A stretch of 63,830 nucleotides of DNA, filler included, from Rozella allomycis CSF55 (taxonomy: Eukaryota), in NCBI GenBank assembly GCA_000442015.1. It is 14 parts of 14 records of this genome, joined end to end, with 100 filler letters (N's around TTAATTAATTAA, not from the genome) between each part and the next. Parts side by side here need not be neighbours in the genome. Positions count along the whole stretch, not along the records: positions 24,125 to 33,628 come from KE560548.1; 13 more parts are not named here. One strand, written 5' to 3'. Made by a program: the position numbers and the translations under genes. Within the stretch, counting starts at the first letter, position 1, and each line of letters begins with the position of its first letter. Shown one piece after another: positions 1,453 through 48,863 of this stretch. The notes under the pieces were generated by a model that saw only the letters and a program-made list of their open reading frames with translations, ran no database searches and had not been told where the DNA came from.

Positions 1453-2347
1453 ATGAATTTAGTGTCTGCAGATTATGGTTCTAGTTCAGACGAAGAAAAA
1501 CGCAATCCGTTAGACGCTCAAGGAAAAATAATCGGAACAAAGTTAAAGAATTCAAAGAAAATTCTTGTCAAATTTGAATCGGATTCGGAGCCAGACGACG
1601 TGGAAGAACAAAAAGCAAAAAAGCTTAAAAATGAGGTCATACATGTTCAAACAGAACCAAAAAAGCAAGAAAATAAAATTACTGAGCCAGATAGTGACGA
1701 CGTTAGCACGGCAGAATCCGGAGACGAAAATATTGTAGAAACACTTGAATTTGATGAAACGGAAGTAGATTTTGAAGCATCAACTTTATATGGAATTGAA
1801 GATTACATTGAAGAAAAGAAAAGACAGAGGGAAGAACAAAAAAACAATCCGGCAGGCGACACTTCTGACTACTTGTTGAGACCACAGTTGGGTGCATTAG
1901 CCCCTTCCCAAATCAACGTTCATGCAGCATCTATATATCAACCAGGTCATAATCATGATGAGTATACAACCCATGAGCTTTCAGAACTAAATGAAGAAGA
2001 TAATAATACGACATTGTCGAACGAGGCCGTAAAGTTCTTAAATTTATTTAATTTAGCTTATGGCTTTAGGTGGAAAACATTTTAAGCATAATGGCCCAGT
2101 TGAGATTGCCGATGTAACACAGAAAGATATATTAGAAGCTCCAATAGATTTTAGCTCTGGTTTAGGGGTAATTCGTCTATATTTTATTGGATATTAGATA
2201 CGTAAATTGACAAATGAAGATTTTGCCAAAAGAAACAATATATTCCAACTTTTGAAGATATCAAAACAACAAGGAGCATTCTTGGAAGAAGCTCATAATA
2301 AAGCCAAGAGTGTTAGAAGAGAAGCCGCTGCAAAATACGGTTGGTAA
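1453..2347 (+). CDS. PRCC: PRCC-like (mitotic checkpoint / spliceosome-associated) protein
   Basis: N-terminus MNLVSADYGSSSDEE; after two GT-AG introns (28, 30 nt) the C-terminus reads KRNNIFQLL...RREAAAKYGW*, matching the PRCC C-terminal pattern. Confidence 0.75.
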
Positions 2348-2729
2348 GAAAAGCAAATTTTGATTCCTATAATAAAGCTTGAATTTCCAATTTTCCAAGC
2401 ATTTTAATAGAAATTTTTTAAGATATTGAATTCCTTTTCATTTTGGCGTCTGAGTGAGGACAAGGATGGCAAAATGAAAATTTAGATTACCTTCTCATCT
2501 CTCGATAGAGGCAGTTGCGAATCACCTGAAACGCTCGGAATGATACACTTTGCATTGAGATCAATTTCCAGTTCCCCTCTTCTGTGATTAAATTTTGTAT
2601 TATCGAGTTTTAGTAACACTTTTTCTTACACGTTAATAATAGTGATCACTGTTAATTAGCATGCATAAAATGATTAATACATCTGGTCTCAGCAGTCAGC
2701 GGCTAAGCCCCAAATCTTATTTGTTCACC

Positions 2730-3438
2730 ATGACACTTCCTGGATATGACAGCAATAATATATGTGAGGACACTAAAACTAAAGCTGAATCCTGTGAAGG
2801 TACTCTTAGGGAAATCAATAATGATGAGATTAGTGCTGAGACATTGGAGATTACCAAAAATATAGTTAGAGATTTAAATTCAACCATACAAACCGCTAAT
2901 GAAGTAATTTTAAAGCTTGAAGATCAAGAAGGTAAAGTAGTTTGCCGGCCATTAATCAGAACAATTATACAACGCAGTAAAGAATACCTCTTGCGCAAAG
3001 TACAATGACAGATTTTCATTTTCAAAGCTTGAAGCGAAGAAAGTAAAAAAGTACTTAAAGTCATTCATATCGAAAATATTTAAACGGCCTTCAAAGGATG
3101 TTGTTACAGCAAGACGTGATATCAAAGATTTTGATATGAATAAAGCAACAGAAAAACGTCAAGTGAACGCCGTTCACAAGGAAACGTCGGAGATGATAGA
3201 AAAGATCAAGCACTTGTCTTCTACATCCATATCCTTGTGTGGAGACAGATTACCAGAAGATACCGTCGATGCAATAGAAAACGAAATAGATGATAATGTA
3301 AAATATATGTCAAAACATCTCAATGAATTAAGAACAACTGGTGTTAATATTATTAACTTGATCGATGCGCAAATTAAACTAATTGATGAACTAACCTTGA
3401 AAGCTAACGTGAACGATAGTGGTATGGTTGATAAATGA
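2730..3438 (+). CDS. Diverged Sec9/SNAP-25-like Qbc-SNARE paralog
   Basis: Collinear with 5553-6344, same phase-1 intron (28 nt), frame open after splicing, C-terminus about 8 aa shorter. Confidence 0.7.
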
Positions 3439-6344: not shown

Positions 6345-6517
6345 TATATGCGTAAACCAATATTACCATATAATGACAATAAATTTAATTAGTGTAGCCT
6401 ATGTTTAGACTTCTTTGATTAGTTCAGCGATTGGTCAGGCGACATGCTTACTCTTCCAAAAATAGAACTCCAAAACAATATTAACCCAATTTAAGCTTCT
6501 CATGTATTAATCTCCGA

Positions 6518-9086
6518 ATGAGCAAACAATCAGATTCATCATTCTTTGTAAAATCAGAAAATGTAGTCCCTGCGGGCAAGCCCCTTCACTTGGAAAAGAG
6601 ATTTCCAAAGGAATCTAGTTCGGCAGATGTTCAACAAACCGTAGAAACTAATCGAAAAGCAATTCAAGAAGCCAAACAACAAAAGTTGGCCGAAAATAAT
6701 CAACGAAAACTCACTGCTGTTGAAGAACATAGAAGAAAAACGAATCAGGAAGTTGAGCAGAAGCTTGCAGAATTGCAGGATGCCTTGTTAAAGGCCGAGA
6801 ATAATAGAACATTGGTGGTTCAAAAGATTATTAATCAAGCCAAGGAGACTAATTCAGTTGTCAAAGAGAAGGCTGTTCAAGCAATGAACCAAAGAAACAC
6901 TATGAGCAGAGCAAAAAGAAGAGAGCTGGAAAGAAAATTGAACATGGCTGCGTTTAGAAGAGATAGATTTTTAAGAGTCCCGAGATCAAAGTTACTGGAA
7001 ACAGTGCAGCATGGTTTGAAGGAAGATCACGAGGCGGCAACTTTAATTCAAAAGTGGTATAGGGGCAGGAAATTTAACAAAGTTATCAAGCCTTTCTTGA
7101 AGACCAATCTTAATGCGAATTCTGTGAAATCAATGACGTTTGAAGAGTTGGGACAGAAAATGCAAGATAAGTCAATCATACATGCAGTTTTAAGCTTATT
7201 GAAGAGTGTTTACACGGCAACTGAAGGTTCTATAAGAAAGATGAAACAGCCAGAACGGGTTTTCTTGTCATCATTTTTGATCATATCCCATCCTAAAGCT
7301 ATATTTGAAACCGTTACATTTCAAGAAGAGGAATTAATAGAAAAGGCCAATGTATTACAAAAAAGTCTTGAAGAATGGATTGGAGAATACAAAACAGAAA
7401 GAGGAACAAAATTAATGATAGAATTCGTTATAAATTTCGACGAGTTTTATTCACTTTTTGAAAATTGGAAAAACAAAGACAAGAAGAAATACATTGAAAA
7501 ATTGATTCAGCATTATCTTGAACTTGAACAACTTTGGAACTCTGTTTCCGATCAAGTAGATTTTGACACTCAATGGAAGCCAAAGTTGAGCGGACAAAAG
7601 GACCGATTAGAAAAAGAATTACTAAAAATTGGAGGCGAACAAGCATTGCAGAATTTAAAGGAAAAATTGGAGTCATTTGAACCAGTGAACCAAACAATTA
7701 ACCAAAAACAAACTGTGTATAATGATAGTGTTGTCCCAGAAAACAAAAGGGTTGATTCTGATCCAGTGGATGAGTTATCTGTACCAAATGATTTATCTAG
7801 TTTTGGTATGACGAATGAATATTTGGCACACGAGCTTGTTTTAGATTCACAGTTTGAGTTGAAAGAAAACGAAGATGCCAGAGTGAAAGAGATTAAAAAT
7901 ATAGCAAAGAGAGCATTTTTTGATAATGTTAGAAAAGAATTCAATGAAAATAGATTTGAAAAGTGGATTCCTGCATTGTTTGAAGATATTAAGAATCAAT
8001 TGCTAGAAATGGTCCAAAGTAATCAAAGTCTTGTCAAGGAAATAAATGAATCCATCGATATTGAATTAATTAAACAGCAAACACAGCACAACGTTCTTGA
8101 TACTAAAGGTCTGTTCCAGTATTGCATTAACAAATTGAAGTCCTTTTGCGCTCCATTCAGAGATCCTGCGGTAAGGAAAATAGAAAACATGGATTTGTCG
8201 GATTTAACATCTGTTTTTGTCGAAATATTCGACCTATTAGACTTGATGAANTGAAATATTTGACTTATTAGACTTGATGAAACTTGACTTGGCTAATTTC
8301 AAATTATCTCAATTGAAGCCCCATCTTAAGCAGCAGATAATTCCTTATGAACAAGCAAAATTTAAGGCTTTGGTTGACGGTGGATTAGAGCTAAAGGTAA
8401 CACGCGAATGGCTGAAGGGCATTTGTGAGACTGCAAATGCAACTGCAACAACTAGAAACCCAGAACAAATAAATCTCCCTGAAAATAAGCCAAAAATGAA
8501 TGAAGTATTTGTAGATGCCATGTTAAGTTTATTATCGTCTTCGGTGGCAGTGATTGGTGAAAAGTGTCCCGAAACATTACGGTTAGATGAATCAAGAATA
8601 GTTAAAATGCAAAATGAGCTTCAAGCAATCGCAATTGTTGCATCCTTACTTATGCTAATGAAAACCACGTTTGTAGAGCTTCGAAGAAATATGACAGAAT
8701 TAAAAAAGATGAGAGATATACTTCTTCTTTTACTTCAAGATCCATCAACAACCATTTCGCATTTACAAGTTCAATTGCTAGACTCTGTTAAAACTGTCAA
8801 AGGATCCGTCACCAGTGAAGAAGAAAAGTTACTGAATACAATGGTTGACAAAACATTGTCTTTTAAAGATACAGTGTATATTATGGTTCAAAGACGCATT
8901 ATTGGTGTGATCAGAAGCTACGTATTGACAGGAAAGTTTAAGCCTGAAATACTTCCAAGGCAAGGTCTTGATCTTGTTGCTAATGAGTTGGCACAATTAG
9001 CTGATAAGTTTATCCTATTAGTTGAACACAATCGCCAGGTTCATGCACCATGGTACGATGAAATCATAAATGAATTTATTCAATAA
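6518..9086 (+). CDS. T-complex protein 11 (Tcp11/Sok1) family protein with IQ motif
   Basis: AATLIQKWYR IQ motif; LAHELVLD, AKRAFFD, FCAPFRD, MKLDLANF, PETLRLD, HNRQVHAPWY. Frame break is the duplication at n8251. Confidence 0.9.
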
Positions 9087-9781: not shown

Positions 9782-9881
9782 NNNNNNNNNNNNNNNNNNN
9801 NNNNNNNNNNNNNNNNNNNNNNNNNTTAATTAATTAANNNNNNNNNNNNNNNNNNNNNNNNNNNNNNNNNNNNNNNNNNNN
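9782..9881. other. Artificial contig linker N44-TTAATTAATTAA-N44 (first of 13)
   Basis: Identical 100-nt linker with stops in all six frames, also starting at 13018, 16336, 24025, 33629, 37979, 39583, 46739, 55798, 58220, 59504, 61234, 62648. Confidence 0.98.
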
Positions 9882-13017: not shown

Positions 13018-13851
13018 NNNNNNNNNNNNNNNNNNNNNNNNNNNNNNNNNNNNNNNNNNNNTTAATTAATTAANNNNNNNNNNNNNNNNNNNNNNNNNNN
13101 NNNNNNNNNNNNNNNNNTTTACTTATTAAATAAATTCTTTTAACTTTTTAAAAAAAATTGCATAGCCTTTAGAGTACGATTAAGTAACAAAAATAGTTCC
13201 ACAATAGAGTGAGCACCAAAATCACTTTAGAAAAATAAATTGATTTTGATAGTTATTGACTAATGACGCTCCCCTTTAATGTTTTTCATGCGCGTTTTCA
13301 GTTTTGCTTTTCAGTTTGAAGTTCATCTGGAATTTGTGGACATCATGGTTGAAAAACCGTTTCTCTAATACTTGAAAAGAGTCACAAATAATTTGACCAA
13401 ATAAAGTACACTGCAAGTACTTTTTACATTCACACTTTTGATTGATTACATTGCTTTGGACCATGGACATTTCTCTAAAATATCTTAGTGTAAAATAAAA
13501 ATAAAAAGAGAAATTGAAATGATATACGTATGTTATTTTCCATTGGGAGAAGTACTTTACTAAATACTAATTTACAGGCAGAGTGTATCCCAAAGTAGAC
13601 GTGGTAAATGTAATCAATGTCATAAGACTTTAACATAGCTCTCTAAATGCTGAGCGCATTGCTAAATTGATGCGTTAAGAAATTGTTGGCGCTCGCCCTC
13701 TAAATGACTCTTCATGAACTGATGATATTGATATTTTGGACCAGCATAGCAAATATTTCTTCTTACCTAATCTCCTTTTCTATAAACTCTAGTTGTCCAA
13801 ACTTTTTAAAATGAATTTTAAAACTTGGAAAACTCATTACGAAATTTAGCA

Positions 13852-16335: not shown

Positions 16336-16435
16336 NNNNNNNNNNNNNNNNNNNNNNNNNNNNNNNNNNNNNNNNNNNNTTAATTAATTAANNNNNNNNN
16401 NNNNNNNNNNNNNNNNNNNNNNNNNNNNNNNNNNN

Positions 16436-18040: not shown

Positions 18041-20769
18041 TTAATATGCTGTATTGTTTGATATAATATTCTTTTTCGATAACACATTTGCCAACATCTT
18101 GTAATTGTACGAATGTTTCATTTTTTCGCCAATTTTCTGTGCAAAATATTCAAATCGATAATTTTCTTTATCTAAACGACATGCTAAAATAGCCTTTTCA
18201 ATCATGTCAGCAATGAAGGCGGCAGGAGCAATGTAAACGAGATCAATTAAAGTATCAATGGCCGTAAAGATTAAATGAGGTTTTTCAATGATAAGATCAG
18301 TTAAAAACAATTGAAAAGATTCACCGGTAGACGAAAAGTAGCTTTCTGTGATTAAATTTGAAATTGAGATAGACTTTGGAGAATTCGTTTCATTGTCAAT
18401 TGATGGATTAGTTGGAATCGGACATGGCTTTGGAGCACTTCCATCTTTTGGGGCACAAATATCACATCCATCACACCAAGAGGAAACAAAAAAGTCGACT
18501 AGTTCTGGTTCTTCCAAATAATAATCCAACTTATTTGGATCCACGTATTCTCCGGCCAAAATTTCCTCTTGAGTTTTGTTATACTCNNNNNNNNNNNNNN
18601 NNNNNNNNNNNNNNNNNNNNNNNNNNNNNNNNNNNNNNNNNNNNNNNNNNNNNNNNNNNNNNTCTTTGGCTTTAATTTTTTTCGATACGGTATTCGGAAG
18701 GTTGGTCTTTCTGTTTCATATGATTGATTATGACCCTGGTGCAAGTTTAACTTTTCAAAGCCATCAATTAAGGAATCTTCAACAAAAGATTCATCAACTT
18801 GAAATATTTCTTCAGACTTTTGGAGTGTTTCAGTAAGTATTGATGTTTCTAACTTATTTTGTTTCTTCGATTTCTTTTGTTTCTTTCGTTGATTGGTCTT
18901 TTTGGATTGCTGACTGGTCATTGGCAAAGAGATATCTTCTTCCTTATTTTCATTGGAAACGACCGAATTATCCTTTTCTTTTCTCTTTTTGGACTTTTTC
19001 TTTTTAGTTTTGTTCATTGCCTCTTCTTCTTCCAGAAGCAATTCTTCAATAAGCTTTAATCGCCTAATTTCATCTTCATCATTTTCATTCACGGAAGCAT
19101 TTTCTTTAACCTGACTCTGTTCGATTTTCCTCAACTGTTTCAGTTTACTTTCATGCCATTGTTTAACATCCACGGGTAAAGCGCCAGAAAATATTATTTC
19201 TTGAAGCTGAATGGGCTTTATGCCAAGAAAATTTTCTTTTTCAATAATTTGTGGCCATAGATTAAACAAGTCTTCACATATTTGGAGATTCACAATATTA
19301 ACAAGACATAGATGCATCAAATTCATGCCGTTTGGCCTACTTAAATCGAAAAACTCGCGCTTGATTTCTTCATCGCTCATATTATTTCTATACGTAAAAT
19401 ATAATTGGCGGTGACCATAATAAACAGCGAAATCTAAAACGCTCCACCCATTGTCATCTTTCATGTACGGAAGGAAAACATCATAATCAATTAAGAGCTT
19501 GATCAAATCTTGTTTTCTCTCTTGAATAACCATTTCTCCCACGTTGAATCTCATTACATCTTGAAGGCGTGACAAGTTTATGTTATCACTGTGCAAAGCG
19601 ATCATTTCGGATGCAAAAACGTCGCCTTTACCGATGGCATAGAAAAATGGTGTTCTGTACAACGATGAAAAGTACTTGATCTCCGATTTCCGTTCCTCTG
19701 TCAAGAATTTCACAACATTTTCTTTATTCGCTAATATGGCATACTGTAGGCAATTTATTTCTTCATTTTGACTGAATTGAAGGAATCCTGAAAGAGGATG
19801 ATCCCCTATTAATTCCATTAAAGTAAATGTAACAGAGTTGTTGTCTGGTAAAAGAATTGCAAGCAAATCAATATTTTCATCATCCAGAGCAACCCGAATC
19901 GCACTTTTAAGATTCACTTTAGGGCTACTTATTGAATTAGAACCGACATGTTGTTGTTGAACTAAACTATCAGTCACCCAAATTTTCTTCAATTTCTCAC
20001 CTGAATTTCCTACATAACTTTCAATTTCAGAATAATCGATAAAAGCTTTCAGTGGAACCTTTTGATGTTCGTTATTGACTTTAACTAGACCATTTTTGAA
20101 TAATCTACTTAATAGTTTCATTGATTCAGAATCCCCTTGAGAGGATAAAAAGGAAGCAATAGAGTCTCCATTCGCACAAACGTAACTATCCGCCGAAAAT
20201 ATCCTTTTAGACAACAAAAGTTCAATTATCCCATAATTTTTCATTTTCAACGCGTAATCCAAACAAGTGCTTTGATCAAATGACCTTACATGGAAAATCC
20301 ACCGATCCTTTGGTTCAATTTTCTGAATCAAGTGCACCAATATATCCTTCCTGTTGAACATACAAGCGTAACTAGCAACACTATGATGATGATCTGACAA
20401 TGCAAAAATCCAGTCGTAACGATTCTCCATAATGAATTTGACAGAACCAAGTTTGTCAGCTGCCACAAGAAACATAAAAAGATTGATTATATCAACATCA
20501 ATAGACTTTGTGAAAATGTTATCCTTTAGAATAATTTTTGACATGTCTCGATCAACCAAATTGATTTTTACACAATAATCCCAATCAACTTTTCCAGGAC
20601 TTTTAGACTTGCTTGTTAAAGCACTATAACAATGAGGAGCCTGAATCCTATAAGAATCGATTTGTTTCTGAGTCAACCTTGTCAACAGGCGTCCTAGTCG
20701 CAGATCTTGAACGAGAAATCCATAAATACCAGTGGCAAGGAAAAATAATTCAAAAAATATAGGTCGCAT
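18041..20769 (-). CDS. Signal-peptide, ankyrin-repeat-like protein with Lys-rich tract; spans scaffold gap
   Basis: Hydrophobic N-terminus; TCLDYAL, NCLQYAI, TPFFYAI, WSVLDFAV, MNLMHLC repeats; KTKKKKSKKRK. Whether 18041-18586 is the same gene is uncertain. Confidence 0.65.
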
Positions 20770-20926
20770 GAAAATTCACGTGACTAGAAACGCTTCCAGG
20801 GTCTATACAAACCAGCATATACATGCAATATAGATAATAAGAAATAAAAAGGATTTATTTTAACATAAATATTCCATGACTATAAGCTAAAAACAAGTCA
20901 AATAACAAGGAAAGAAAAAAATAGGT

Positions 20927-24024: not shown

Positions 24025-24124
24025 NNNNNNNNNNNNNNNNNNNNNNNNNNNNNNNNNNNNNNNNNNNNTTAATTAATTAANNNNNNNNNNNNNNNNNNNN
24101 NNNNNNNNNNNNNNNNNNNNNNNN

Positions 24125-25330
24125 ACCATGTCCAATATTTCTTGTATTTCACCTTACTTAGCCATGCAATAAAATGTGAAGGTCAACCCTGTGCAAGGAA
24201 AGTTGGAAATGAATGACGGACGCACTGAAGTGGATAGAGTTGGCGTCACCGAACCAATAGAGATCTTTCATAATGGAAAAGTTGTTAATCATCAATTCGA
24301 AATTCTATACATGGGCTTTGATATTGCTTGTCCCATAAACAATTTCCCCGGCTTGGATTTACATGCCAAACTAGGAATTGTCATAACTGGAATAACATCA
24401 AAATGTGACAATGGAAATGGTAGAAATTTAAATAATCATGTAGAAGCCACCAAGGAGGTATCAAAGGTACCTGAAGAGCTAAACATTCCTATTACAACAA
24501 AGGAATAATACTCCAATAAATGGCCCCTTGACCCATATGATATTCTTAAATTGATTAAATGTCATTACATTTAAATCTACGATTCAATCCTTATTTGACG
24601 GCATCACTTAATTCAAAGAATTCTACACTGGCAGTTACCCTCCAGTACAATATCTAATAAGATTCTTTGACTTCATCGAGGTTGTTGATCAACATACGTA
24701 ATGACAGGATATTGGATCAGTTAAAGAAACATTTCCTTGGAATGATTCTTCATTTCTTTTTCCGAAAACAGATTATGTTAGAAAAGTTAAAAATTAAAGG
24801 TCGATGCATTTCCATTGACCAACGACATTTATAGAATGATAGCATAGCTAACGATATCTATCCATTACCATTAATGAGGGTCATATATGAATCATAAAAG
24901 ATTAATAAACTAGCATTCGACTACATCGCAATAGATTTGACGGAATTCCCAACATCACCCTAGCAAAACAAATATCTATTAGTAGTACTATAAGACGTAA
25001 TAAAGGTGGCGCTTACATACTAAAGGTCAGGATGGATCAATTTATGAGCGTCCACCATCATCTCTAAAGTTATACAATCAAACCCCAGTAGAAGCATCGG
25101 GAGATGTAACAGAGATAGAGCGCATTCACAATAATAAACAGAACAAAAAAACCAAGGAAGATGAATACTTCGTACAATGGAAAGGTTTTCCTTCAACTGA
25201 ACATGAATGGGTTAAAACTAGCGACTTTCAAGATCTTGATATAATACGCAAATATTGGAATGCAGGCAAAAGACAAAGGACGTCTCGTAAAACCAATAAC
25301 ACAATTCACAAGAAGGCTAAATTGTCGACT
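24125..25330 (+). mobile_element. Highly decayed Ty3/Gypsy chromovirus (protease, RT, integrase, chromodomain fragments)
   Basis: In order: GLDLHAKLGI (protease), DIYPLPL (RT), FDYIAIDLTEFP..NKYLLVV (integrase), RRNKGGAYILK, EYFVQWKGFPSTEHEWV..IIRKYW (chromodomain). Many stops and deletions. Confidence 0.8.
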
Positions 25331-25391
25331 AAAGCTGAAGAATTGTCTAATACTCCTGACATTGTTAAAGATACTTCTAACGGTACTCATC

Positions 25392-26173
25392 ACTATCAAT
25401 TGAGAAGTAGACAACAATTAAGGATACAATTACAAAATACATGACCATTATTTATTTTATTTATTATATTTAAGCCTGGCAGATACAATATAATCACTAC
25501 TATAACACATAGTAAAGATAACTTTATTAACAAACATTAATTCTAAAACCGGTCACAATTAAATGTTTATACAATAGAAATAATTATAGAATTAAATAAG
25601 AGTTATTAACAAAAAACATTTATTTAGAAATGGAAGATAGTTGAAGTGGGACGATCAGAAATCCTAAGGAGCCAGGATCAAATTAATTCCATGGTGACTG
25701 TTTTTGAGTCAATGCAATTAAAATCGCTTTGCGGCTCTTTCAAACCATAAGAAGGGATTTTGTTACCAACATTCCCCCTCTCNCTATCAATTGAGAAGTA
25801 GACAACAATTAAGGATACAATTACAAAATACATGACCATTATTTATTTTATTTATTATATTTAAGCCTGGCAGATACAATATAATCACTACTATAACACA
25901 TAGTAAAGATAACTTTATTAACAAACATTAATTCTAAAACCGGTCACAATTAAATGTTTATACAATAGAAATAATTATAGAATTAAATAAGAGTTATTAA
26001 CAAAAAACATTTATTTAGAAATGGAAGATAGTTGAAGTGGGACGATCAGAAATCCTAAGGAGCCAGGATCAAATTAATTCCATGGTGACTGTTTTTGAGT
26101 CAATGCAATTAAAATCGCTTTGCGGCTCTTTCAAACCATAAGAAGGGATTTTGTTACCAACATTCCCCCTCTC
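25392..26173. repeat. ~390-bp tandem duplicate joined by n25783 (assembly overlap)
   Basis: Two copies look identical on either side of a single n. Confidence 0.85.
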
Positions 26174-26651
26174 CCATAAAATTACTCTTTCCAAGCGGAA
26201 AGATACTTTCACCTTAAAACACTATCTGAAAATTTAAGTATAAACTTACTTGTGAAACTTGGAAAATACCCAAATCTCAAGTCAGAAGTTCAGGATGAAA
26301 AAAATTATTAAAAGGGTCTACATCCTTCTGTTCCAGTATTTATACTCTCAAAATTTGTAAATTTCGGAAATCAAATTGGAACTTTGACCTCAATAGAAAA
26401 TTCTGAAAGAATCGAGGAAATTCCGAAGCATTACGGCCAAAGGCTTCAAACAGCAATCCAATTCGATTTCTACACGCCAATCTAACATAGATCGAGTTAA
26501 AACTTAAATAACGCCTCCAGCTATCAGGACGGGGGTGATGTGGTACCAGACATATTAATGACATGATGATATTAGATGAATAAAACATCTGATTTTAATC
26601 ATAAGATGATATTTATTAAAGATCTATAAATAGAATGTGAAGATAAGATAC

Positions 26652-26734
26652 TGTCACGAATTATTTTGAGGGTTTCTATTACCAGGGTCCCGAAACACAA
26701 GTCGTACTAATATTGTGCAAGATCGTCCGTGACA
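26652..26734. mobile_element. 83-bp element with TGTCACG/CGTGACA termini and ATAC direct flanks (mini solo-LTR or MITE)
   Basis: 7-bp inverted ends in TG...CA form; ATAC at 26648-26651 and 26735-26738. Confidence 0.5.
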
Positions 26735-27199
26735 ATACGAAAACCAATTCAATAAAGATTCCGATCTCATTGACTGTAGTTATTACTTTTACAAATTACT
26801 TAGTATTTTCTTATCCGTTCTATGAGAGAACGTCCGGAATAATGTGAGGAAAACAGGTCCCTCCGAAACAGTGCAATTGAGAAACAGGATGTTTGTTTTG
26901 CCCGTGACAAGGAATTGCCCATTTGTGTCAGGCATTAAATTTCCGGTGTAATTTGCGTTACGGATAGCTTTTGCCCAGAATCCTTTCTTCGCTCATCGAC
27001 GCATCGTGTAGTGTGGAGTGCGGAATCTTCGAGCGTGATTTCCTCACAAGCGGTGAAATCTACGCTACATAATTCCTCCTTTTTGTATGTCATTTTACAG
27101 CCTTCAACCAGATGGAGTACGTGTTGCAATTTGCCGATGTTGCAATGATTGACAGACAGTTGCCAGTCTTCCAGAGTCCTTGAAATAGACGGGATAGTA

Positions 27200-27560
27200 G
27201 TAGCAGTAGAAATCTGTAAATCAACTGTAAATAAATTGTTTTCTTTCTGACCCTCTAATATTACCTATTGTAGATTTTGTTGAACAAATTCATCTAGCAT
27301 TTTTGATGCCAGGGAAACGATTAAACGTACCGCGCGTATCCAGCGTATTAATTGATAATAAATTGATTGCGCGATCTGGCAAATTTAAATATTTTGATAT
27401 TTTCTGGCCCTAGCGGCGTAGCGATCCCCTTACCCGTCCAGGAACTAGATCGATCATCGACTGGACTCATTCGCATAAAGATTAAGGGCTTCCGTATTTC
27501 TCATTACATGTTCCGAAGAACCAGAATCTACTAACATTCGCACATCATTAGTTTGACGAT
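27200..27560 (-). mobile_element. Ty1/Copia remnant (protease and pre-integrase region)
   Basis: MLVDSGSSEHVM resembles the Copia protease motif; downstream VILEGQKENNLFTVDL. Confidence 0.55.
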
Positions 27561-28688
27561 GAGTTGGGACTGGACATGAATTGTACATAAAGGAATTTTT
27601 TATAAATGGCATTGTTGCAGGAAGGCCATGTTGGGCAAGAGGTAGGCAAGCACGTCCAGCAAGTTGATTTAGTTCGACTATGTTGGCAATGATACGCCAC
27701 GACATGATTGGCTGTTTTAGGCGTTTCCCCATTATGTGATACCGATAATAATCGTTTCCATGAAGAGCGCCGATCCCGTTGAACGACATCAAATGATACC
27801 TTAAATGATTAATAGTGATTTATAGCTATATATTAGTGAGTAGCGTATTGAGATGACAGTCTCTGCGTAACGCATATATCAAACAACAGCTATTGGATTC
27901 ACCACATGACGCTAGAAATTGACGTTCTAACACANGAGTAGCGTATTGAAATGACAGTCTCTGCGTAACGCATATATCAAAAAACAGCTATTGGATTCAC
28001 CACATGACGCTAGAAATTGACGTTCTAACACAACGTGTTAAAGAAGCGCGGATTACATATCACAACTGGAAATGAAACGAAATCACATGAGCATTGACAG
28101 CCAGACGGTGATTTTGTGTGGATCATTACAACATTTGGTAACACGAAAATCCCGCTTTATGCTGCTGTAAAGTCTGGACGTAAGAATTTATGCAAGCTGG
28201 GATCCACACTCTTGATCATGGCAAAAGTTGGACAGTTTTGATTCGAACTGTTGGCGTACCATTTCACTTATCCCTTGCATGAAGATATGGTGGCCAAATC
28301 TATTTAAAGTAATCCAAGTTTCACGGCTTTTGTGAACTTGGTCTTGAGGTAGTAGCGGTGATTTGACATGTCGTTGAGATGTTCTCAAAGTACCTCCAAT
28401 TTGGGGACGATAGGCGATTGAGTGATGGTTGGTGGAAGTGTGTCAATAGCGCCATATGGAGTATTGGGAACGTTGGTCTGTTAAAAGATTGCAGTGTAAT
28501 AGGTAGGAGGTTATTTTTAAAAATTGTGAAAATCGTTGAGCTGAATTGGACCAAAATGTGTCCGAAAATTGGACACAATGCTAACCTACATGCTCAATAA
28601 ATATATTTTTGTTAATATATTTTGTCTATTGGAAATTTCACGAAATAGATCTTAAAGATTACACAAAGGTAATAGGCGCACATCATTT

Positions 28689-29170
28689 TTATTTATGAAT
28701 GTGTGAAATCAAAGACTTGAGGACGTCACCAAATTGGTCAATGCTATCATTGAGCTTTGTGACAGCCTTGGGCGTTTCTGTTAACAACGTAATTTGCATT
28801 ACCTCCTCCTTTTGTTTGTACATACTAGCCAAGGCTACCAATCTATCTTTCAACCACTCACCTATGCTTAAGATTGCTTGCGAGATATTAATATTGTTAT
28901 TTCTACGAGCAAAGGCTGCTGTTGTAGACAAACGTGGTTCACTAGTATGGGAAGTAAACCTCACTCGTTGGGATGACATTTCACATAAATTGTATTCCAC
29001 TTGCCCACGATGACATGCACCTAGACCATCGCGACCTTCAAAATACTGAACCATAATGTTCCAGAGTGGCGGTTCAGGACCCTATTCCCCATTACCTGCC
29101 TGTCACATTTCAGCTTTTCGTTTTGGGTAAACTGTTTTCGCAGCATTTGTCAACTGCGGCACGGTCACAC
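28689..29170 (-). pseudogene. Possible Myb/SANT-like (Harbinger-associated) protein remnant
   Basis: PPLWNIMVQYFEGRDGLG followed by a coiled-coil tail; upstream broken. Confidence 0.25.
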
Positions 29171-30517
29171 TGTAGACAGAAATGATTTTTTTAACTCGTC
29201 CACAGTTGTATTCCGTGTTGTTTAAACCTTGTAACGATCCTTGTTATCCAAAAACGCGGTTGAATATTTTGCCAGTCGTAAATGTAGGACACTCTGCACT
29301 TGTTCATCGCTCCAAATGTGGTTTTGTGCTGTTGGTAACTCACTATCAGAGTCCTAAATTGATTTTCTTCTTTTAAAAATTAATTGAATGAGAAAATGTT
29401 TTACAGGGGTAATATCGAATTGATAGTTAAAAAGCTCATCTATTTTTTAACTACACCGAGTATAGTAATTAGTGTTAAGTTGTTGTTAGTGTTAGTTTTT
29501 AAATAGTTATTAATAACACTATTTAAAGGAAAGTGTTCGAGTCGACAAAAATATACACTNTCTACTTTTTAACTACACCGAGGATAGTAAATAGTGTTAA
29601 GTTGTTGTTAGTGTTAGTTTTTAAATAGTTTTAATAACACTATTTAAAGAAAAGTGTTCGAGTCGACAAAAATATACACTAAATAAAGTAGTAAATTTCC
29701 GACATTGTTTTCTATGGAGCTGCTCTTGAGGCCTTGTGGTGGTTGCAAGGAACCTGTTGGTGGTGTTCACAGGTGTCCTGAATGCGGAAAATACATGCAT
29801 CCGTGGAGCCGGTCGGATGCTAGGGGTACAGACAACCGATAAAATGCCATGTCTCGGCCACCTTATGAGACCCAAAGTAGACTGCAATCACTTTTTAGTG
29901 TCACCAACTTTCAGTGTCAACCCACACTTCTTATGCCTCTTGCAGCTTCTGCCGCAGTTAGAACGAGTATGCCCGACAATTTTTAACTCCATACACCAGC
30001 CACAATTTCGCCAAGAATTCGTTATTTAATTACCATTGTCGGTGTATTTTTTATTGACTTTGAATTTTCGACTTTTTAGTTGAAGTTGGTTCTTACTATT
30101 TCCTTCTTTTAACCATTTCACTTTAAAAAATTAATCGAATGAGAAAATTTTTACAGGGGTGATATCGACTTTTTTTTTTTTTTGATATTTTTTATTGACT
30201 TTGAATTTTCGACTTTTTAGTTGAAGTTGGTTCTTACAGATTGAAGCTAAGTTTCACGTTAGCAAAAGGAATTCATCAAAGATTCTGAGAAGAGTGGTAT
30301 AAACATTTAAAAAAATATGTTTGAGTTTATTATAATTATGTATCATGATTTATGTTGAACCAAGTTTCTTGATAAATATCATTTCTTTGTCTATTTTACC
30401 ACAAACACACTGAAAATATATTGATGTCATATTTTAAATATATCCTGGTCTAAATAATTATTATTAGCACATATGTGATGTTCTAGAAAATTGGCGGGTG
30501 CTTTGCCACTCTTTGGG

Positions 30518-33077
30518 ATGACATCGTGGGCAACAATATACATAATTACGAGAGAAGGAAAAGAGAGCCGATCGTTGCCTATTAGTAAAAAGCGATATAC
30601 TTTTGGCAGGTGAGAGTATTTTTTGAGATTAAGAGGGATTTGACATGTGACATAAGGATCCAGTTACCGAGCGTATCACAGCGCCATTGTAGTATAGTAA
30701 AGGAGAGTGATGAAAAGGTGATTAAATGTTAGAGTGTGGAATAGGCGTTTATTGAGGTATCTGGTGAGACGGGAGTGTTATTGAATGAAGAGATGTGTAA
30801 AGGAGATAAGGGAAGAATAGAGTTGCGCAATGGCGATGTTATAATGATCGATGAGAGAAAGTTTAGATTTGAATATAGGAATAATGTTTTGAGGGAGAGT
30901 AGTAGAGTGAATAAGATGGATGTTGGCAGGACAAGAAGAAAGAGTTCAGTTGGTGGCAAGGAGAGGATGAAGGAAGTTTGTCCACCGACACCAAAGAATG
31001 TGACTCCATCGAGAGAGAAGATGAATGTTGTTTCTAATTGGAAGATTGATGCTAAAAATCGGGAATCAATAGCGCAACTTTTAACGTTGGCGAATTCACC
31101 CATCAAAGCGACGGTTGCAACCAAGAGTGATAAATTGAAAGATGATACAGGGAATGTTGAAGTAATTGATGAAGCGATTAAAGAAAACGTAAAGGAAGAA
31201 GAGGAGGAGAATGCAGAAGTAAAAGAAGCGGAGGCTAAAGTACAAATAAAATTACAAGATGTTAACGATGAAGAAGCCAAGGTGAAAATTTTAGTTGAAG
31301 AAGAGAAAGAGAACCTAATAGAGGATGAAGAAGAAGACAAAGTGAATCTCCTAGAAGAAGTTAAAGAAGAAGACAGGGAAATTCCTCAAGATGGAGAAGA
31401 CAATCAAGATGGAGAAGACAAAGTGAATCTTCTAGAAGAAGTTAAAGAACAAATAGAAGTAAAAGAAGCTGATGAAGATTTACAAAATACAGTGGATTCA
31501 AAAGAACATGAACTAGATTCAAAAGAAGATCAAGAAATAAATTTAATACAACATGAAGATCTACAAGCAGATTTAAAAGAAGATAAAATTAATGAAATGA
31601 ATTGTTTGACGCCAAAGAAGGTGACGTTTGGACCACCATTGAGCCCTGAAGTGTTTGACAAGAACCAACCCCCTGCATCACCATTGAGGAGAGGAAATTC
31701 TCCATTTTCACCGAGAAGAAATTTATTTTCGCCTGGAATTTTAAAAAGATCAAATTTGAAAAATGAATTAAAAAGTAGAAAGTTATTTGCAGTAGAAGTA
31801 GAAGGGGGAGATGAGGTAGTAGAGGGTGAAGGGGTAGTAGAGGGTGAAAGGGGAGAAGAAATGAATGATATACAAAAAGTTGAATGTGGAAATCCTTTTC
31901 AATTAATAAATGAATTGAACGACGTGGATGATTCTTCTTCTGTTCATTCTTTAGAAGTTGAAGAAATATTCTCTCGAGAAATGAAAGAATCCCACAACCT
32001 TGAAGGGATAGAAAATGAATCTTTTAAAGCTAAAGAATTTCAAGATAAAGAATTTCAAGGTGACGCTGTAGTTGAAGCGGAAGCTGAAATTAAAGAATCA
32101 AAAGATAAACAAACTGAAATTCAAGTAACGCTTGTAGAAGAAACAGAAATTGAAGAATCTAAATTTATTAAATCCAAAATTGAATCTAANAGAAGAATCC
32201 CACAACCTCGAAGGGAACAAAAATGAATCTGTTAAAGCTACAGAATTTCAAGTTAAAGAATTTCAAGGTGACGCTGTAGTTGAAGCTGAAGTCAAAGTTT
32301 ATAAGGAATCAAAAGAAAATCAAACTGAAATTCAAGTAACGCTTGTAAACGAAACAGAAATTGAAGAATCTAAATTTATTACATCCAAAATTGAATCTAA
32401 TGAAATACCCCCTGAAGTGCCTACTGGATCTGTTGAAGTGCCACCTGAAATTTCTCCAATTAAAACACGTTCTAGATCAAAGAAAAGATTAACGTTGGTT
32501 GAAGAAAAAAAATCTCATAAAGAAGAAATTGTTAAACGTGGCAGAGGAAGACCCAAAAAGGCAACAAATGATTCAAAAGAGAATCAGAATGTTAAAGAGT
32601 CGAAAGCATCAAATGTTGGATACGTTATAGAATCTAATGCTTCTATTAAAGAGTCAAATACTTCTATTAAAGATTTAACTAGTTCTGTTAATGACTCCAA
32701 TGCTTCTATTAAAGATTTAACGTTAAAGAGAACTTTAAGTGAAAATGTTCAAAGCAGCCCAAGAAGGGGAAGACCAAAGAAAATTAAACAAAATGAACCC
32801 AAAGATTTATCAACTACAATTTCAACTCTTGACACTACAACTAATTCAAAACATAATGTAAAACACGAAGCAATTCAAAGAATTTTATCAGATTCAAACT
32901 CTAATCTTCCTTCAAGCCCAAGAAGATCCTCTCGTCTAAAAAATAAACANTCTTGACACTACAACAAATTCAAAGCATAATGTAAAACACGACGCAATTC
33001 AAAGAATTTTATCAGATTCAAATTCTAATCTTCCTTCAAGCCCAAGAAGATCCTCTCGTCTAAAAAATAAACATTAA
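30518..33077 (+). CDS. Ki-67/Repo-Man-like protein: N-terminal FHA, PP1-binding motif, acidic disordered region, AT-hooks
   Basis: Introns 30610-30635 and 30718-30744 give YTFGRDLTCDIRIQLPSVSQRHCSI...LRNGDVIMIDERKFRFEY; KKVTFGPPLSPEVFDKNQPPASPLRRG; KRGRGRPKK and RRGRPKK. n joints at 32190 and 32950. Confidence 0.88.
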
Positions 33078-33098
33078 ACATTTAATCATTAAATTAGT

Positions 33099-33628
33099 TT
33101 ATTTCTTTACTTTGAAAAATGAATTAATCTTTTTGTTATTCTTAACATCAATTTGATTCTTTTTATTCACAGTTTTCTTTTATATTACATATTCATCCCT
33201 TACCTTGGCTGTCTGGGGCTTGTAATAATCATTCGTCGGGTTCAATTCTATTCCTCCCTTTTCTTTCATTACTTTTGTCAAATTAGAATTCGTAAATAAT
33301 GATTTTTCATTAATCAATTTAACATCTTCAATCCCTTTATCTCTCATCACTCTCTCTAAATATCCATCACCCACCCCAAACATCTTTAATAACCTCATAG
33401 CTGTCTTGATTCGATGTTCCCTCTTCTCTTCTTCATTAACATGCTCTTGGAAACTCTGTGGATCAATCCATTTGAAAAAATCTAACTCCTCGTAGCTCTC
33501 TAAATATCTATCAATAATCAATCCTAGAAATTTCACATATTTATCTTCATCTAGATCATAATACACAGTTGATCCTTTATAACAATTCACATCCTCTTAC
33601 CAACTGTTTCTTTTTGACACACTTTATC
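33099..33628 (-). CDS. RNH202: RNase H2 subunit B, C-terminal part
   Basis: KVCQKE..VYYDLDEDKYVKFL and terminal PIP-box-like NKKINSFFK after two small introns. Confidence 0.65.
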
Positions 33629-34039
33629 NNNNNNNNNNNNNNNNNNNNNNNNNNNNNNNNNNNNNNNNNNNNTTAATTAATTAANNNNNNNNNNNNNNNN
33701 NNNNNNNNNNNNNNNNNNNNNNNNNNNNCCAGGGTTCGAAATTCATTTTAGGTCAGAATTAAACGTTTCGAAACATTTTATTGGTAGATTGAATAAAGCA
33801 AAGATTGATGCAAGAGATTCAATCGAGACTGTTGACTCATTCTTGAAAGGCTACCAGTTTATTTGGATTTACATTTGGATTCTAAGTAATTGCTTTGCAA
33901 GACAGTAGAAGCTAAGACAGACTGTTCTATTTTGATTATACTTCAACAGAAATTTTTACGGATATAAATGGTATAGAAATATTATTTAAAATTGGGCTCT
34001 AACTTTCTACTTTATTCACCATGCAATATTAAATAAAAA

Positions 34040-35198: not shown

Positions 35199-37978
35199 AT
35201 GGGCACTTATTACAAGAGCGAACACTTCAAAGAGAGGAAATCGAATTATCGGAAATAGTGGAAGGATGCATATTATTTATGATACACAAATATTTTCAGG
35301 AGTTAATACCACCATTTCGACACCCCGATTACAGCAAAAGTTCGTTTCATAAGATGGGAGGCTGTTCATGAAGCTAATTGTATTATACTATTAAAGAATA
35401 GAGAACTTTTATCAATGCGAACAGAAACGAGTGCAACCCCAAGTAAGAACAATCAGGTTAAATAGGTTTTGGGGCTCAGCGAAAAATAACGAGANTTTAG
35501 CTTAAATTATTTAGAATTTAAAAAATTTGTGCTATGCTATTTTGAAGATGAAGCCGAATCAGTGTCAAGAAAGAGTGATCTGTCATGTCTCACTCAAGAA
35601 AAAATAAACAGGATTAGGGAAAAGCATCCAAATCTCCCTTGGTTTGCAAGTCATGATGGCGTTAATGTGGTGCGACTAAGTGCAGCTGCACCTGAAGCTT
35701 CGTTTATCATTGACGTAGAAGAAATCAAAAAGTACTCTTATGTATATGTTGGCNAGTTAAAAATGGACAGCTTATTACAAGAGCAAAAACTTGAAAGAGA
35801 GGAAATCGAATTATCGAAAATAGTGGATGCATATTATTTATGATAAACAAATATTTTCAGGTGTTAATACCACCATTTCGGCACCCCGATTACAGCAAAA
35901 GTATAAGATGGTGAACAAGAATTCAACTTTGAGGCTGTTGAATACAGAACTTTTATCAAATCAATGCGAACAGAAGAACAATCAGGTTAAATAGGTTTTG
36001 GGGCTCAGCGAAAAAACGAGATGNCTGTCAGGAAGAGATGAACGAAATCGCATCCTTGATGAAGATGTTTTTATTACCATTTGACACGATTTTTCAAACT
36101 GTTGAACACCGACCTGATATTTTTCTTTCGGAAAAGGGTTTGTCATTCTTAACTTTTAAGCTTGGCGTTCAATGCTTTTCGAACCATCAGAACTTGATTG
36201 AATTAACGTCTACATGTTGCCTGTTTTCAACAGTTTTTGGGCCATCAGGTGCTGGTAAAACTAGATTATGTTTAGAAATGCTGGCGAAGAAAATGGGGAA
36301 CTATATTAACTTTCAAAGTTCTATTGACACCAAATTATTTTATCAGTATATTCCTAACGGAGATGAAGATGGGGATTACACTAGATTAATCTCGGCAAAA
36401 ATTGATGGTCTTTTTGGGTTTCGACGAATTTTGTTGAACCTTGCAATATCATTGGGCTTGAATGCGAACCAATTCTTAATGTTTCAATTGGTGTTTTTAC
36501 AAGAAGAAGCTTTCGTGCTAATGAAAAATCAGGACTTACATGACAGAAAAGCACTGATAAACCTAATTCGCGAATGTTTGAAAAATACAAATTGCCCGAT
36601 TAACTTCAGCTTTCCAGAAGTTTCACGTGTTGCATGTGTTTTGGATGAGGCTCATATTCTGGATACTTTATTAAAGGGTAAGTTTTCTGGAAAGTACATG
36701 AATCAATCGCTTTTCTCACTATTTATTTCTAGATGCAAAGTGAGCGCCATTCAGCGTTATGTGGTAGCATCAACAGCGCAGAATCTTTTGGAGTCTATGC
36801 TGGATTCTATCCCTTCCATGGTTAGTCAATCAGGAGGGAGAAACGAAGCATTAGGTTCAGTAGTTAAACAGGTCTATGTGAATGTGAGTTCAAGCTTTAA
36901 ATCTACATTTGAGTTTGCGTCTCAGTTTTTGCAATGGGTGGATAATGATCCCAGACGAAAGATATTTTTTAANGTGTCAGGAAGAGATGACAAAGATCGC
37001 ATCCTTAATGAAAATGTTTTTATTACCATTGACACGATTTTTCAAACTGTTGAACACCGACCTGATATTTTTCTTTCGGAAAAGGGTTTGTCATTCTTAA
37101 CTTTTAAGCTTGGCGTTCAATGCTTTTCGAACCATCAGAACTTGATTGAATTAACGTCTACATGTTGCCTGTTTTCAACAGTTTTTGGGCCATCAGGTGC
37201 TGGTAAAACTAGATTATGTTTAGAAATGCTGGCGAAGAAAATGGGGAACTATATTAACTTTCAAAGTTCTATTGACACCAAATTATTTTATCAGTATATT
37301 CCTAACGGAGATGAAGATGGGGATTACACTAGATTAATCTCGGCAAAAATTGATGGTCTTTTTGGGTTTCGACGAATTTTGTTGAACCTTGCAATATCAT
37401 TGGGCTTGAATGCGAACCAATTCTTAATGTTTCAATTGGTGTTTTTACAAGAAGAAGCTTTCGTGCTAATGAAAAATCAGGACTTACATGACAGAAAAGC
37501 ACTGATAAACCTAATTCGCGAATGTTTGAATAATACAAATTGTCCGATTAACTTCAGCTTTCCAGAAGTTAAACGTGTTGCATGTGTTTTGGATGAGGCT
37601 CATATTCTGGATACTCTATTAAAAGGTAGCAAGTACATGAATCATCGATCGCTTTTCTCACTATTTATTTCAAGATGCAAAGTGAGCGCCATTCAGCGTT
37701 ATGTTTTAGCATCAACAGCACAAACCCTTTTGAAGCCTATCCTGGATTCTGTCACTTCCAAGGCTAGTCAATCAGGAGGGAGAAACGAATCATTAGGTTC
37801 AGTAGTTAAACAGGTCTATGTAAATGTTAGTTCAAATTTTAAATCTTTATTTGAGTTTGCGTCGCAGTTTTTGCAATGGGAGGATAATGATCCCAGACGA
37901 AAGATATTTTTTAAGCCGTTGGAAGTTCATATTCGACCTCGACACTTTCTGTGTTACTTGGAGTATCTTTATAATGTG
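35199..37978 (+). CDS. Crinkler/RHS-type P-loop NTPase, present as two n-joined near-identical copies; 3'-truncated
   Basis: Walker A GPSGAGKT and Walker B CVLDEAH each occur twice either side of n36973; fragmentary N-terminal copies at n35495, n35754, n36024. Confidence 0.65.
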
Positions 37979-38088
37979 NNNNNNNNNNNNNNNNNNNNNN
38001 NNNNNNNNNNNNNNNNNNNNNNTTAATTAATTAANNNNNNNNNNNNNNNNNNNNNNNNNNNNNNNNNNNNNNNNNNNNTTATTTTAAT

Positions 38089-47703: not shown

Positions 47704-48540
47704 TCACGATTTATCAAAATAAGGAACTCCTTCGATTGGTAAGTTTTGAACCTTTCCTGAAAACTTGCTATGATGAACAGTGGAGATATGCTGTTTTAAA
47801 TTGTCTTTTCTGCTAAAGAACTTATCGCAAAATTCACATCCAAATGGTTTTAGTTTTGAATGTGTCGCTTCATGTCTTGTCAGGTGTTCTTTCCTCTTGA
47901 AGGACCTATTACACATTTGGCAAGTTAAAGATACAGATCCTCTTTTTCCAAGAATAAAATTCTTCTTTTCTATTGGTGATAAAGCTGATTTTGATGTCTC
48001 AGTTGGGGAATTCAGATCCATTGAATTGTTACTGTTATCACTCTCCCTATTAAGAGAGCTATTTTGCCAAGAAACGAATCCATTGTTAATTTGCAGCATT
48101 TCAAGACCATGAGTTGCGTTCCTTTCATCTCTTTTTATACTTCTTTGTAGTAGATCTTGAAAATCAACAGTAGGCCAAAAGAATAACTTTTGCTTCTTCC
48201 TAGTCCTAATGCAGCCAATTTCGTTCAAAGTATTTATTATTTCATTGCTTGGATCTACCAACATTGCGTCTTTGCCTATTTTGTAGATTCGTAGATCTGA
48301 AAAAACACCTTCTTCAAACTTTTTCTGATCTTTAATTTGTGTAGACGTATTCTCTTGATAAAAATATTCTATCACTTTAAGAATATCTGTTCCAGTAACT
48401 ACTAATTGATTTTGATATCTGATACAATTCACAATTGATTGATCTGGTAGGATTATACCGCGGCTCACTTCATTATCTTGCCAATCCAATGTTATTGCTG
48501 TATGGGCAATTAAAAACTCTTCAAATGTTGTTACGGACAT
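47704..48540 (-). CDS. STE12: Ste12/SteA transcription factor (STE domain + two C2H2 fingers)
   Basis: VTGTDILK, KKFEEGVFSDLR, CIRTRKKQKLFFW; CQMC...HEATH and CEFC...HISTVH. Confidence 0.92.
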   Translation of the reverse strand: MSVTTFEEFLIAHTAITLDWQDNEVSRGIILPDQSIVNCIRYQNQLVVTGTDILKVIEYFYQENTSTQIKDQKKFEEGVFSDLRIYKIGKDAMLVDPSNEIINTLNEIGCIRTRKKQKLFFWPTVDFQDLLQRSIKRDERNATHGLEMLQINNGFVSWQNSSLNRESDNSNNSMDLNSPTETSKSALSPIEKKNFILGKRGSVSLTCQMCNRSFKRKEHLTRHEATHSKLKPFGCEFCDKFFSRKDNLKQHISTVHHSKFSGKVQNLPIEGVPYFDKS

Positions 48541-48599
48541 ATCCGTATCCAAGGGAATTTTTTTTGGGAATAATTTACATGGACAATAGAAATTTCCAA

Positions 48600-48863
48600 A
48601 TGCCCTTTGTAAAAGAAATGGGTGAAGTACCAATTGTGGTGCGCAGAAATCTAGTGAGAAAAATTCAGAGGCAAAAAGATGAAGCAAATGAAGAAGCTAA
48701 AAAAGCTGAAATAAACCAGGAACTTGAATTTTTACAGGATCAAGTTCAGCTTCTTAAAAAAGAAAAGGAATCTTTATTCATAAAGTTGAAAGAAGTAATT
48801 AAATTGGAGCAAGGTATAAAGTATGTTGTTTATTGACTAGGAAAGAAAAAGACTCTAGAATAG
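48600..48863 (+). CDS. Small coiled-coil protein resembling the GPS2 N-terminus
   Basis: LQDQVQLLKKEKESLFIKLKEVIKLE aligns by eye to GPS2 LEEKLLALQEEKHQLFLQLKKVLHEE; one 27-nt intron. Confidence 0.5.

Follow-up and report, generated by a model that had tools for sequence, protein, structure and literature searches.

A Ki-67/bridgin-family gene with a full PP1-binding module in the early-diverging fungus Rozella allomycis

Our findings point with high confidence to a member of the Ki-67/bridgin family in Rozella allomycis CSF55 (GenBank assembly GCA_000442015.1), encoded by a three-exon gene on the plus strand at positions 30518-33077 of the stretch analyzed here. This stretch, hereafter the window, comprises 63,830 nucleotides (nt) and joins 14 parts of 14 records of the genome end to end, of which positions 24,125 to 33,628 derive from KE560548.1. 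Taken as a whole, the locus is best explained as a vertically inherited family member of ~724 amino acids (aa) that would act as a gated recruiter of PP1, and it combines an FHA domain of the Ki-67 subtype, the extended PP1-binding module otherwise typified by Ki-67 and Repo-Man (CDCA2), and a basic tail. An earlier, sequence-only reading of this DNA had proposed a Ki-67/Repo-Man-like gene in an early-diverging fungus, and Pfam, PDB and homologue searches agree with that proposal. The position and phase of both introns within the FHA domain, moreover, recur in divergent homologues from metagenomes, a line of evidence on descent that owes nothing to sequence similarity.

The two introns are very small, at 26 and 27 nt. 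Exon 1 (30518-30609) begins at the earliest ATG past an in-frame stop and encodes residues 1-30, with the N-terminal FHA strands, plus the AG of the Arg31 codon; its Met1 pairs with Met1 in the mammalian rows of Ki-67, and the family alignment shows no gap along this segment. Intron 1 (30610-30635, GT..AG, phase 2) splits the Arg31 codon as AG|G within FG-R and ends at the sole acceptor that preserves the reading frame. Exon 2 (30636-30717, 82 nt) supplies the final base of the Arg31 codon and 27 further codons that cover the FHA core, including Ser45 and His48, and is followed by intron 2 (30718-30744, GT..AG, phase 0) between Lys58 and Ala59. Reading through either intron runs into a stop codon (for intron 2, in the open reading frame (ORF) 30589-30732), and neither splice junction introduces a gap into the family FHA alignment. 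Exon 3 (30745-33077) completes the FHA domain (to ~30879) and also encodes the disordered regions as well as the PP1 module and basic tail, closing with a TAA at 33075-33077. Among 459 GT..AG candidates in the window whose removal would join two ORFs, 76 (16.6%) are 26-29 nt long, a share that is 8.4-9.9% when any of four control dinucleotide pairs is used instead; the tiny introns are plausible above all because of homology, which is stronger evidence than this enrichment in length.

The gene model offered here is both a correction and a completion, the sole public Rozella entry that we found being a partial 'hypothetical protein' that lacks the FHA domain. This entry (P0001; Rozella allomycis CSF55, 530 aa, 96% identity) is the closest database protein and was the only one recovered by word-index searches for homologues, in which the exon-3 ORF gave one match among 7,998 candidates and the motif region alone gave one among five. 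It derives from a separate assembly, in which its start coincides with the edge of a contig of 1,681 nt. The correction concerns two redundant copies that the present assembly carries within exon 3. The first (31985-32192) contains an N at 32190 and is a copy of 32193-32400, the pair measuring ~205 and 208 nt, ~90% identical, with a 3-nt indel; the second (32827-32950) ends in an N at 32950 and duplicates 32951-33074 over 124 nt at 96% identity. In the independently assembled P0001 the first block is present as a single copy with an open frame. Once both duplications are collapsed, an open coding sequence of 2,175 nt and 724 aa results. The true protein is therefore taken to be ~724 aa, since two single-N duplications inflate the span and the first of them shifts the frame; the ~835 aa implied by the raw span must be given up, while the gene itself and the peptides quoted for it in the sequence-only reading stand.

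Identification of the N-terminus draws on several searches. Exon 2 alone (27 aa) scores 22.9 bits against the Pfam FHA model (cutoff 20.7) and, among 177,635 distinct PDB sequences at E≤10, matches only two, both of them entries for the FHA domain of human Ki-67 (E 2.9e-4). The first 53 aa of exon 3 match only these same two entries, in collinear order, with an E of 1.2 that is not significant alone. Spliced residues 1-110 align over ~6-103 with 34 of 74 proteins that bear the PP1 motif (i-E<1e-5), vertebrate Ki-67 included, at 24-36% identity; the spliced FHA domain is identical to mole Ki-67 at 37 of 106 positions and to a chytrid protein at 38 of 109, and the full-length spliced protein aligns collinearly with mole Ki-67 (P0059) over the FHA domain (7-105, 48.3 bits) and the PP1 region (344-394, 22.8 bits). 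Rozella retains Arg31, Ser45, His48 and Asn72, positions at which FHA domains usually contact phosphothreonine, and Arg also stands at position 31 in the mammalian rows of Ki-67. The earlier statements that the spliced N-terminus tracks the Ki-67 FHA domain and that the two share this arginine at the same residue are thus borne out by the Pfam score, the Ki-67-only PDB matches and the end-to-end family alignment. In a PDB search with a chytrid family member, the Ki-67 FHA domain scored 51.5 bits and the next FHA family, CHFR, 25.4 bits, and so the Ki-67 FHA subtype is distinct from other solved FHA domains. We let this ranking stand in for an outgroup test because the FHA tree (34 rows, 109 columns, built by a quick method) contained no unrelated FHA sequences. 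In the phylogenetic check suggested earlier, the tree gave the gene no resolved placement, and the PDB ranking put the Ki-67 FHA domain first.

The second defining element is the PP1-binding module (31615-31704, K349-P378), in which an RVxF motif, a PhiPhi pair and a KiR-SLiM follow one another. Pfam PP1_bind (PF15276) scores 43.3 bits at residues 349-378 against a cutoff of 27, and with this both of the profile checks called for by the sequence-only reading, FHA and PP1_bind, lie above their Pfam cutoffs. In the PDB, the motif matches nothing but three peptides whose structures were determined with PP1 bound, two from Repo-Man (E 1.7e-7 and 2.3e-7) and one from Ki-67 (E 2.2e-6), and each alignment is free of gaps, in keeping with the extended Ki-67/Repo-Man motif that had been proposed. 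The RVxF motif reads KVTF (31618-31629), the PhiPhi pair is EV, and the KiR-SLiM, FDKNQPPASPLRRGNSP, matches 12 of the 14 specified positions (counted by eye) of the consensus given in PMC5005033. Inside the module lie Thr352, whose context KKVT is that of an Aurora-type site, and three S-P sites (S358, S370 and S377). In the gapless CDCA2 alignment these correspond to RepoMan positions 394, 400, 412 and 419, of which, as described in PMC5005033, the first is an Aurora B site and the other three are CDK1 sites whose phosphorylation blocks PP1 binding.

A profile search of 1.84 billion representatives, made with an alignment (A1) of one long and two short references over 342 columns, returned 74 proteins at E≤1e-3, the matches being anchored on the PP1 motif. 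Twenty representatives were looked up, and these included nine fungal proteins, from Podila (2), Entomortierella, Mortierella, Gamsiella, Bifiguratus, Basidiobolus, Coemansia and Chytriomyces, and ten holozoan ones, among them vertebrate Ki-67 and CDCA2 and proteins of sponge, mollusc and choanoflagellate. Five of the nine fungal representatives bear the GenBank name 'antigen identified by monoclonal antibody Ki-67'. Among the matches listed for a profile of the nine fungal members are vertebrate Ki-67 proteins with Ki-67 repeats (E 4e-51 to ~1e-29) and two more fungal 'Ki-67 antigen' entries. The Ki-67 repeat itself (PF08065) was not found at E≤10 in either piece of Rozella exon 3 and is absent also from the fungal members among the matches listed.

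These relationships have precedents. Sridhar et al. (2021, PMC7794384) described bridgin, Bgi1 of Cryptococcus neoformans, as a Ki-67-like kinetochore protein of fungi that has an FHA domain, a PP1 site and a basic tail; they report homologues from Basidiomycota, Pneumocystis and Taphrinales and name Ki-67 as the homologue in metazoans. In a 2026 bioRxiv preprint (10.64898/2026.06.18.733134), homologues of Ki-67 are reported from fungi, among them the cryptomycete Paramicrosporidium, and from beyond the opisthokonts, and GenBank contains 'Ki-67 antigen' entries for Podila, Mortierella, Basidiobolus, Coemansia and Podochytrium. The novelty claimed in the sequence-only reading, which had treated Ki-67 as animal-restricted, was therefore overstated, because fungal relatives were already in print and in GenBank annotation; the opisthokont-wide origin that it drew from the gene appears correct, though as a proposal it too had been published. 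A literature search pairing 'Ki-67' with 'Rozella' found nothing related, and the excerpts consulted of the preprint make no mention of Rozella, bridgin or introns. The Rozella gene leaves the current picture unchanged and adds one further family member, a compact Ki-67/bridgin protein whose PP1 module is complete, in Cryptomycota, which among the fungi is a lineage near microsporidia.

What is new, and we regard it as a modest advance, is that both Rozella intron positions with their phases, together with the 82-nt exon 2, recur in divergent metagenomic homologues. Shared intron positions are evidence of common descent that is independent of sequence similarity, and they are useful here because the FHA tree alone could not resolve how the fungal and animal members are related. 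Scanning metagenome contigs for the motif yielded 27 loci, 13 of which also had an FHA match at E≤1e-3, and splice junctions were mapped at the nucleotide level in eight of them (L027, L011, L012, L008, L024, L025, L007 and L026). The position and phase of intron 1, a phase-2 intron within the Arg codon of FG-R, recur in L027 (797-1030), L011 (1991-2054) and L012 (1529-1609, where the split codon reads AGC); the acceptor side of L008 agrees, and L007 is consistent, its upstream exon lying off the contig. Intron 2, in phase 0 and exactly 27 codons further on, recurs in L011 (2137-2199) and L012 (1692-1871), with one-sided agreement at the donor of L008 and at the acceptors of L024 and L025. Exon 2 measures 82 nt in Rozella, L008, L011 and L012. 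The pattern is not universal, as several loci make plain. In L027, the most animal-like of the loci (42-61% identity per exon to fish Ki-67), the second intron (1137-3083) lies 8 codons further on than Rozella intron 2; L026 has its intron in the DI-R codon instead; L007 is without intron 2; and the FHA regions of L001, L002, L003 and L019 are uninterrupted. Of the two introns that the sequence-only reading had placed in human MKI67, within the FGR codon and just before the Ala after the HC.I strand, the first is in line with these loci and the second is not.

Beyond its two recognizable domains, the Rozella protein is laid out in blocks of alternating charge within an overall isoelectric point (pI) of 5.2. 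A basic linker (residues 106-165, pI 10.7) leads from the FHA domain into a first acidic low-complexity region (31066-31602, residues 166-344, pI 4.1); the PP1 region, itself basic, separates this from a second acidic region (31798-32407, residues 410-543 of the collapsed model, pI 4.2), after which the basic C-terminal tail (32408-33074, residues 544-724, pI 10.2) runs to the end. Residues 106-724 are 37% charged, and by composition only they are placed among disordered sequences by the charge-hydropathy boundary. The tail contains two GRP cores with flanking Arg and Lys, at 32537-32560 (residues 587-594) and 32759-32779 (residues 661-667), and a 7-aa repeat in ~4 copies (32625-32715); all the repeats found are short, of 15-21 nt, apart from a 42-nt row that overlaps the 21-nt array. 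Ser/Thr-Pro (S/T-P) sites number 12, against 4.4 +/- 1.9 in shuffled sequences (3 of 5000 shuffles reach 12), and half of them cluster around the PP1 motif. Of the Ki-67-like layout described in the sequence-only reading, the S/T-P enrichment, the disorder-type composition and the basic tail are upheld, and what does not carry over is the overall character, the protein being acidic as a whole, with an acidic middle of bridgin type and no Ki-67 repeats.

Set beside vertebrate Ki-67, the Rozella protein has an N-terminal FHA domain of the same subtype with Arg31 at the equal residue number, an RVxF-PhiPhi-KiR-SLiM module downstream of it, a disorder-type remainder and a basic C-terminus, but it is far shorter (~724 aa versus 2,000-3,200 aa), acidic rather than strongly basic (pI 5.2 versus ~10), free of PF08065, and equipped with GRP cores in its tail. 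In terms of the features of the Ki-67 family, then, it possesses the Ki-67-subtype FHA domain and the PP1 module, and it possesses neither the repeats nor the strongly basic overall charge. Bridgin, by its published description (PMC7794384), likewise has an N-terminal FHA domain, an acidic unstructured middle, a basic C-terminus and a link to PP1, and each element of this layout is found in Rozella in the form of the FHA domain, the acidic, disorder-type residues 166-344 and 410-543, and the basic tail. The same source gives bridgin a length of 1,295 aa, a PP1 site at residues 161-164 that it calls 'unconventional putative', and a repeat motif present in 13 copies; in Rozella the repeats are minor and the KiR-SLiM module is complete, at 349-378. 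In its acidic middle, basic tail and pI, the layout resembles that of bridgin more nearly than that of the basic Ki-67. The early-diverging fungal Ki-67-type proteins, with which we group the Paramicrosporidium protein of the preprint (10.64898/2026.06.18.733134), share with Rozella the FHA and PP1_bind pair and a nearly identical motif core, ..KKV[ST]FGP.LSPE[IV]FD..PP..P..RG, and are mostly acidic overall; no other full-length fungal member among those compared is as short as the Rozella protein. Among the compared members, pI values are 4.8-5.1 for the chytrid and Mortierellomycota proteins, 9.2-9.3 for Basidiobolus and Bifiguratus, and 9.8-10.9 for five holozoan FHA-bearing proteins. The last fifth of the protein is basic in Rozella, Basidiobolus, Bifiguratus and the chytrids; in the Mortierellomycota members P0005, P0019, P0025 and P0085 the last 20% is acidic (pI 4.3-4.9). 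Because these four end acidic and, unlike Rozella, have no basic tail, such a tail is not universal in the fungal family.

How a protein of this kind operates in Rozella can be framed in more than one way, and the alternatives share much of the evidence. The protein may function as bridgin does, recruited to the outer kinetochore through its FHA domain and acidic region while the basic tail clamps centromeric chromatin, with delivery of PP1 a secondary matter. We consider this a tenable alternative, though one we do not favor. With a pI of 4.1-4.6 in its acidic middle and of 10.2-10.3 in its basic tail, the protein compares well with the 4.65 and 11.2 given for bridgin, and PP1 appears in the table of proteins that co-purified with bridgin (PMC7794384), but the bridgin PP1 site, as described there, is 'unconventional' and lies just after the FHA domain, whereas Rozella carries the full Ki-67/Repo-Man module in mid-protein. 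A role like that of vertebrate Ki-67, as organizer of the perichromosomal layer and chromosome 'surfactant', strikes us as unlikely. The FHA subtype, the PP1 module, the enrichment in S/T-P sites and the basic tail would all suit it; against these stand a pI of 5.2 where holozoan members have 9.8-10.9, the lack of Ki-67 repeats, a length of ~724 aa and an S/T-P density (1.7 per 100 aa) that is the lowest among the 15 proteins compared. Many fungi, moreover, have a closed mitosis, for which no such layer may be needed, as the preprint (10.64898/2026.06.18.733134) points out.

Two further explanations question the gene itself, and we judge both to be very improbable, the second slightly more so than the first. 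The locus might encode a PP1-targeting subunit of Repo-Man type, the upstream FHA exons then belonging to another gene or representing a chance match. The Rozella protein does share with Repo-Man the PP1 module, down to the threonine of the RVxF motif and the three S/T-P positions (PMC5005033), its motif scores slightly better against the CDCA2 peptides than against the Ki-67 peptide, and the public partial protein P0001 has no FHA domain. The latter, however, merely begins at the end of its contig. The FHA exons are in frame across gaps of 26 and 27 nt, the full FHA domain aligns gaplessly with 34 of the 74 motif-bearing proteins, and the CDCA2-type rows P0003 and P0007 are without an FHA domain; as the Rozella protein has one, the definition of Repo-Man, PP1_bind without FHA, does not fit it. 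Alternatively, the gene could stem from animal contamination or be a dead gene broken by frameshifts. The raw sequence does shift frame at the N at 32190, but the second Rozella assembly has a single copy of the duplicated block with an open frame, and at 10 of the 19 single-N joints in the window the left flank is repeated immediately to the right of the N (alignment score at least 30), which indicates an assembly artefact. Contamination is countered by the P0001 match, through which the organism is identified as Rozella allomycis, by a uniform GC content of 32-37% across the window, by the enrichment of 26-29 nt GT..AG candidates noted above, and by an ORF for a Ste12-like transcription factor in the same window (47704-48696, minus strand; STE domain E 1.2e-29, two C2H2 fingers). 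Ste12 is a fungal family. On this point too the earlier reading, which had held animal contamination to be unlikely, proved sound.

We return to a Ki-67/bridgin-family protein that would recruit PP1 under mitotic control. In the mechanism that we propose, the FHA domain would dock a phosphorylated mitotic partner, the basic tail would bind DNA or chromatin non-specifically, and the central module would, at exit from mitosis, bring the catalytic subunit of PP1 to chromatin; earlier in mitosis, phosphorylation of Thr352 in the RVxF motif, at its Aurora-type site, and of the three S-P sites would block PP1 binding. We infer such gating because Thr352 and the S-P sites align on the Aurora B and CDK1 positions of RepoMan. 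The gene would have been inherited vertically from the opisthokont ancestor, which is argued from intron positions and genomic context because the FHA tree gave no resolution.

Several observations weigh against this interpretation. PP1 binding, chromatin binding and mitotic timing are all predictions from motifs, and the KiR-SLiM differs from the published consensus at two of the 14 specified positions, carrying Gln for Leu and Ala for Asn. The Pfam AT_hook model (PF02178) reaches 16.9 bits on the tail, just under its cutoff of 17.4. Exon 1 alone has no Pfam or PDB match, and the putative splicing of the two tiny introns is drawn from homology and reading frame. Only 3 of the 31 inner branches of the FHA tree are well supported, and the Rozella branch is long (1.56) with no supported neighbor. 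For a related cryptomycete protein, AlphaFold3 predicted no binding to NIFK (10.64898/2026.06.18.733134). The final ~35 residues are uncertain, as their sequence turns on the splicing of a 34-nt GT..AG segment (32858-32891); by-eye comparison indicates that the P0001 model removes it and then meets a stop 15 residues later. This segment has a copy ~124 nt downstream, and either the P0001 ending or the unspliced, basic ending could be right.

We lean, by a modest degree, towards a wider conclusion, namely that the common ancestor of fungi and animals possessed a compact Ki-67/bridgin protein, with a Ki-67-type FHA domain that carried these two introns on either side of an 82-nt exon and a complete KiR-SLiM that included the Aurora/CDK switch positions, and that Rozella has kept it almost intact in its ~724 aa. 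If this is true, the PP1 surface attributed in vertebrates to 'just two regulators' would be an ancient opisthokont interface, and Repo-Man a later offshoot that is without the FHA domain. A protein that is small and mostly repeat-free is also suited to testing which properties of Ki-67 are ancestral, the candidates being PP1 recruitment, chromatin binding, and targeting to the kinetochore or to the chromosome periphery.

The single-N joints that complicate this gene have consequences elsewhere in the assembly, where they will put false duplications and frameshifts into other genes. They occur in the window at 633, 828, 4825, 8251, 11322, 11800, 12513, 25783, 27935, 29560, 32190, 32950, 34671 and 61008, among other sites. 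In addition to the ten with duplicated flanks, four show shorter repeats of 20-33 nt, and the duplicated flanks look like unmerged contig ends or alleles. One instance concerns a TCP11-family ORF (6485-8254, plus strand; Pfam Tcp11 E 4e-36) that ends at the single N at 8251, beyond which a second long ORF (8250-9086, plus strand) continues in a different frame; the two are probably one gene split by the joint. Upstream of the Rozella Ki-67/bridgin-family gene, 280-470 nt before its start codon, a segment of ~50 nt is present by eye in two copies ~140 nt apart (about 30048-30097 and 30189-30238), each containing TTTGAA, and could represent a promoter element or further assembly redundancy. Longer runs of N follow a regular arrangement, with paired 44-N blocks exactly 12 bases apart at 9782-9881, 13018-13117, 16336-16435, 24025-24124, 33629-33728 and ~9 more places, and one 76-N block at 18587-18662; this regularity suggests a masking or scaffolding convention rather than biology. 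Finally, the window contains two large ORFs, at 18499-20775 (minus strand) and 35942-38026 (plus strand), one with ankyrin repeats, the other with an ATPase domain of AAA_22 type.

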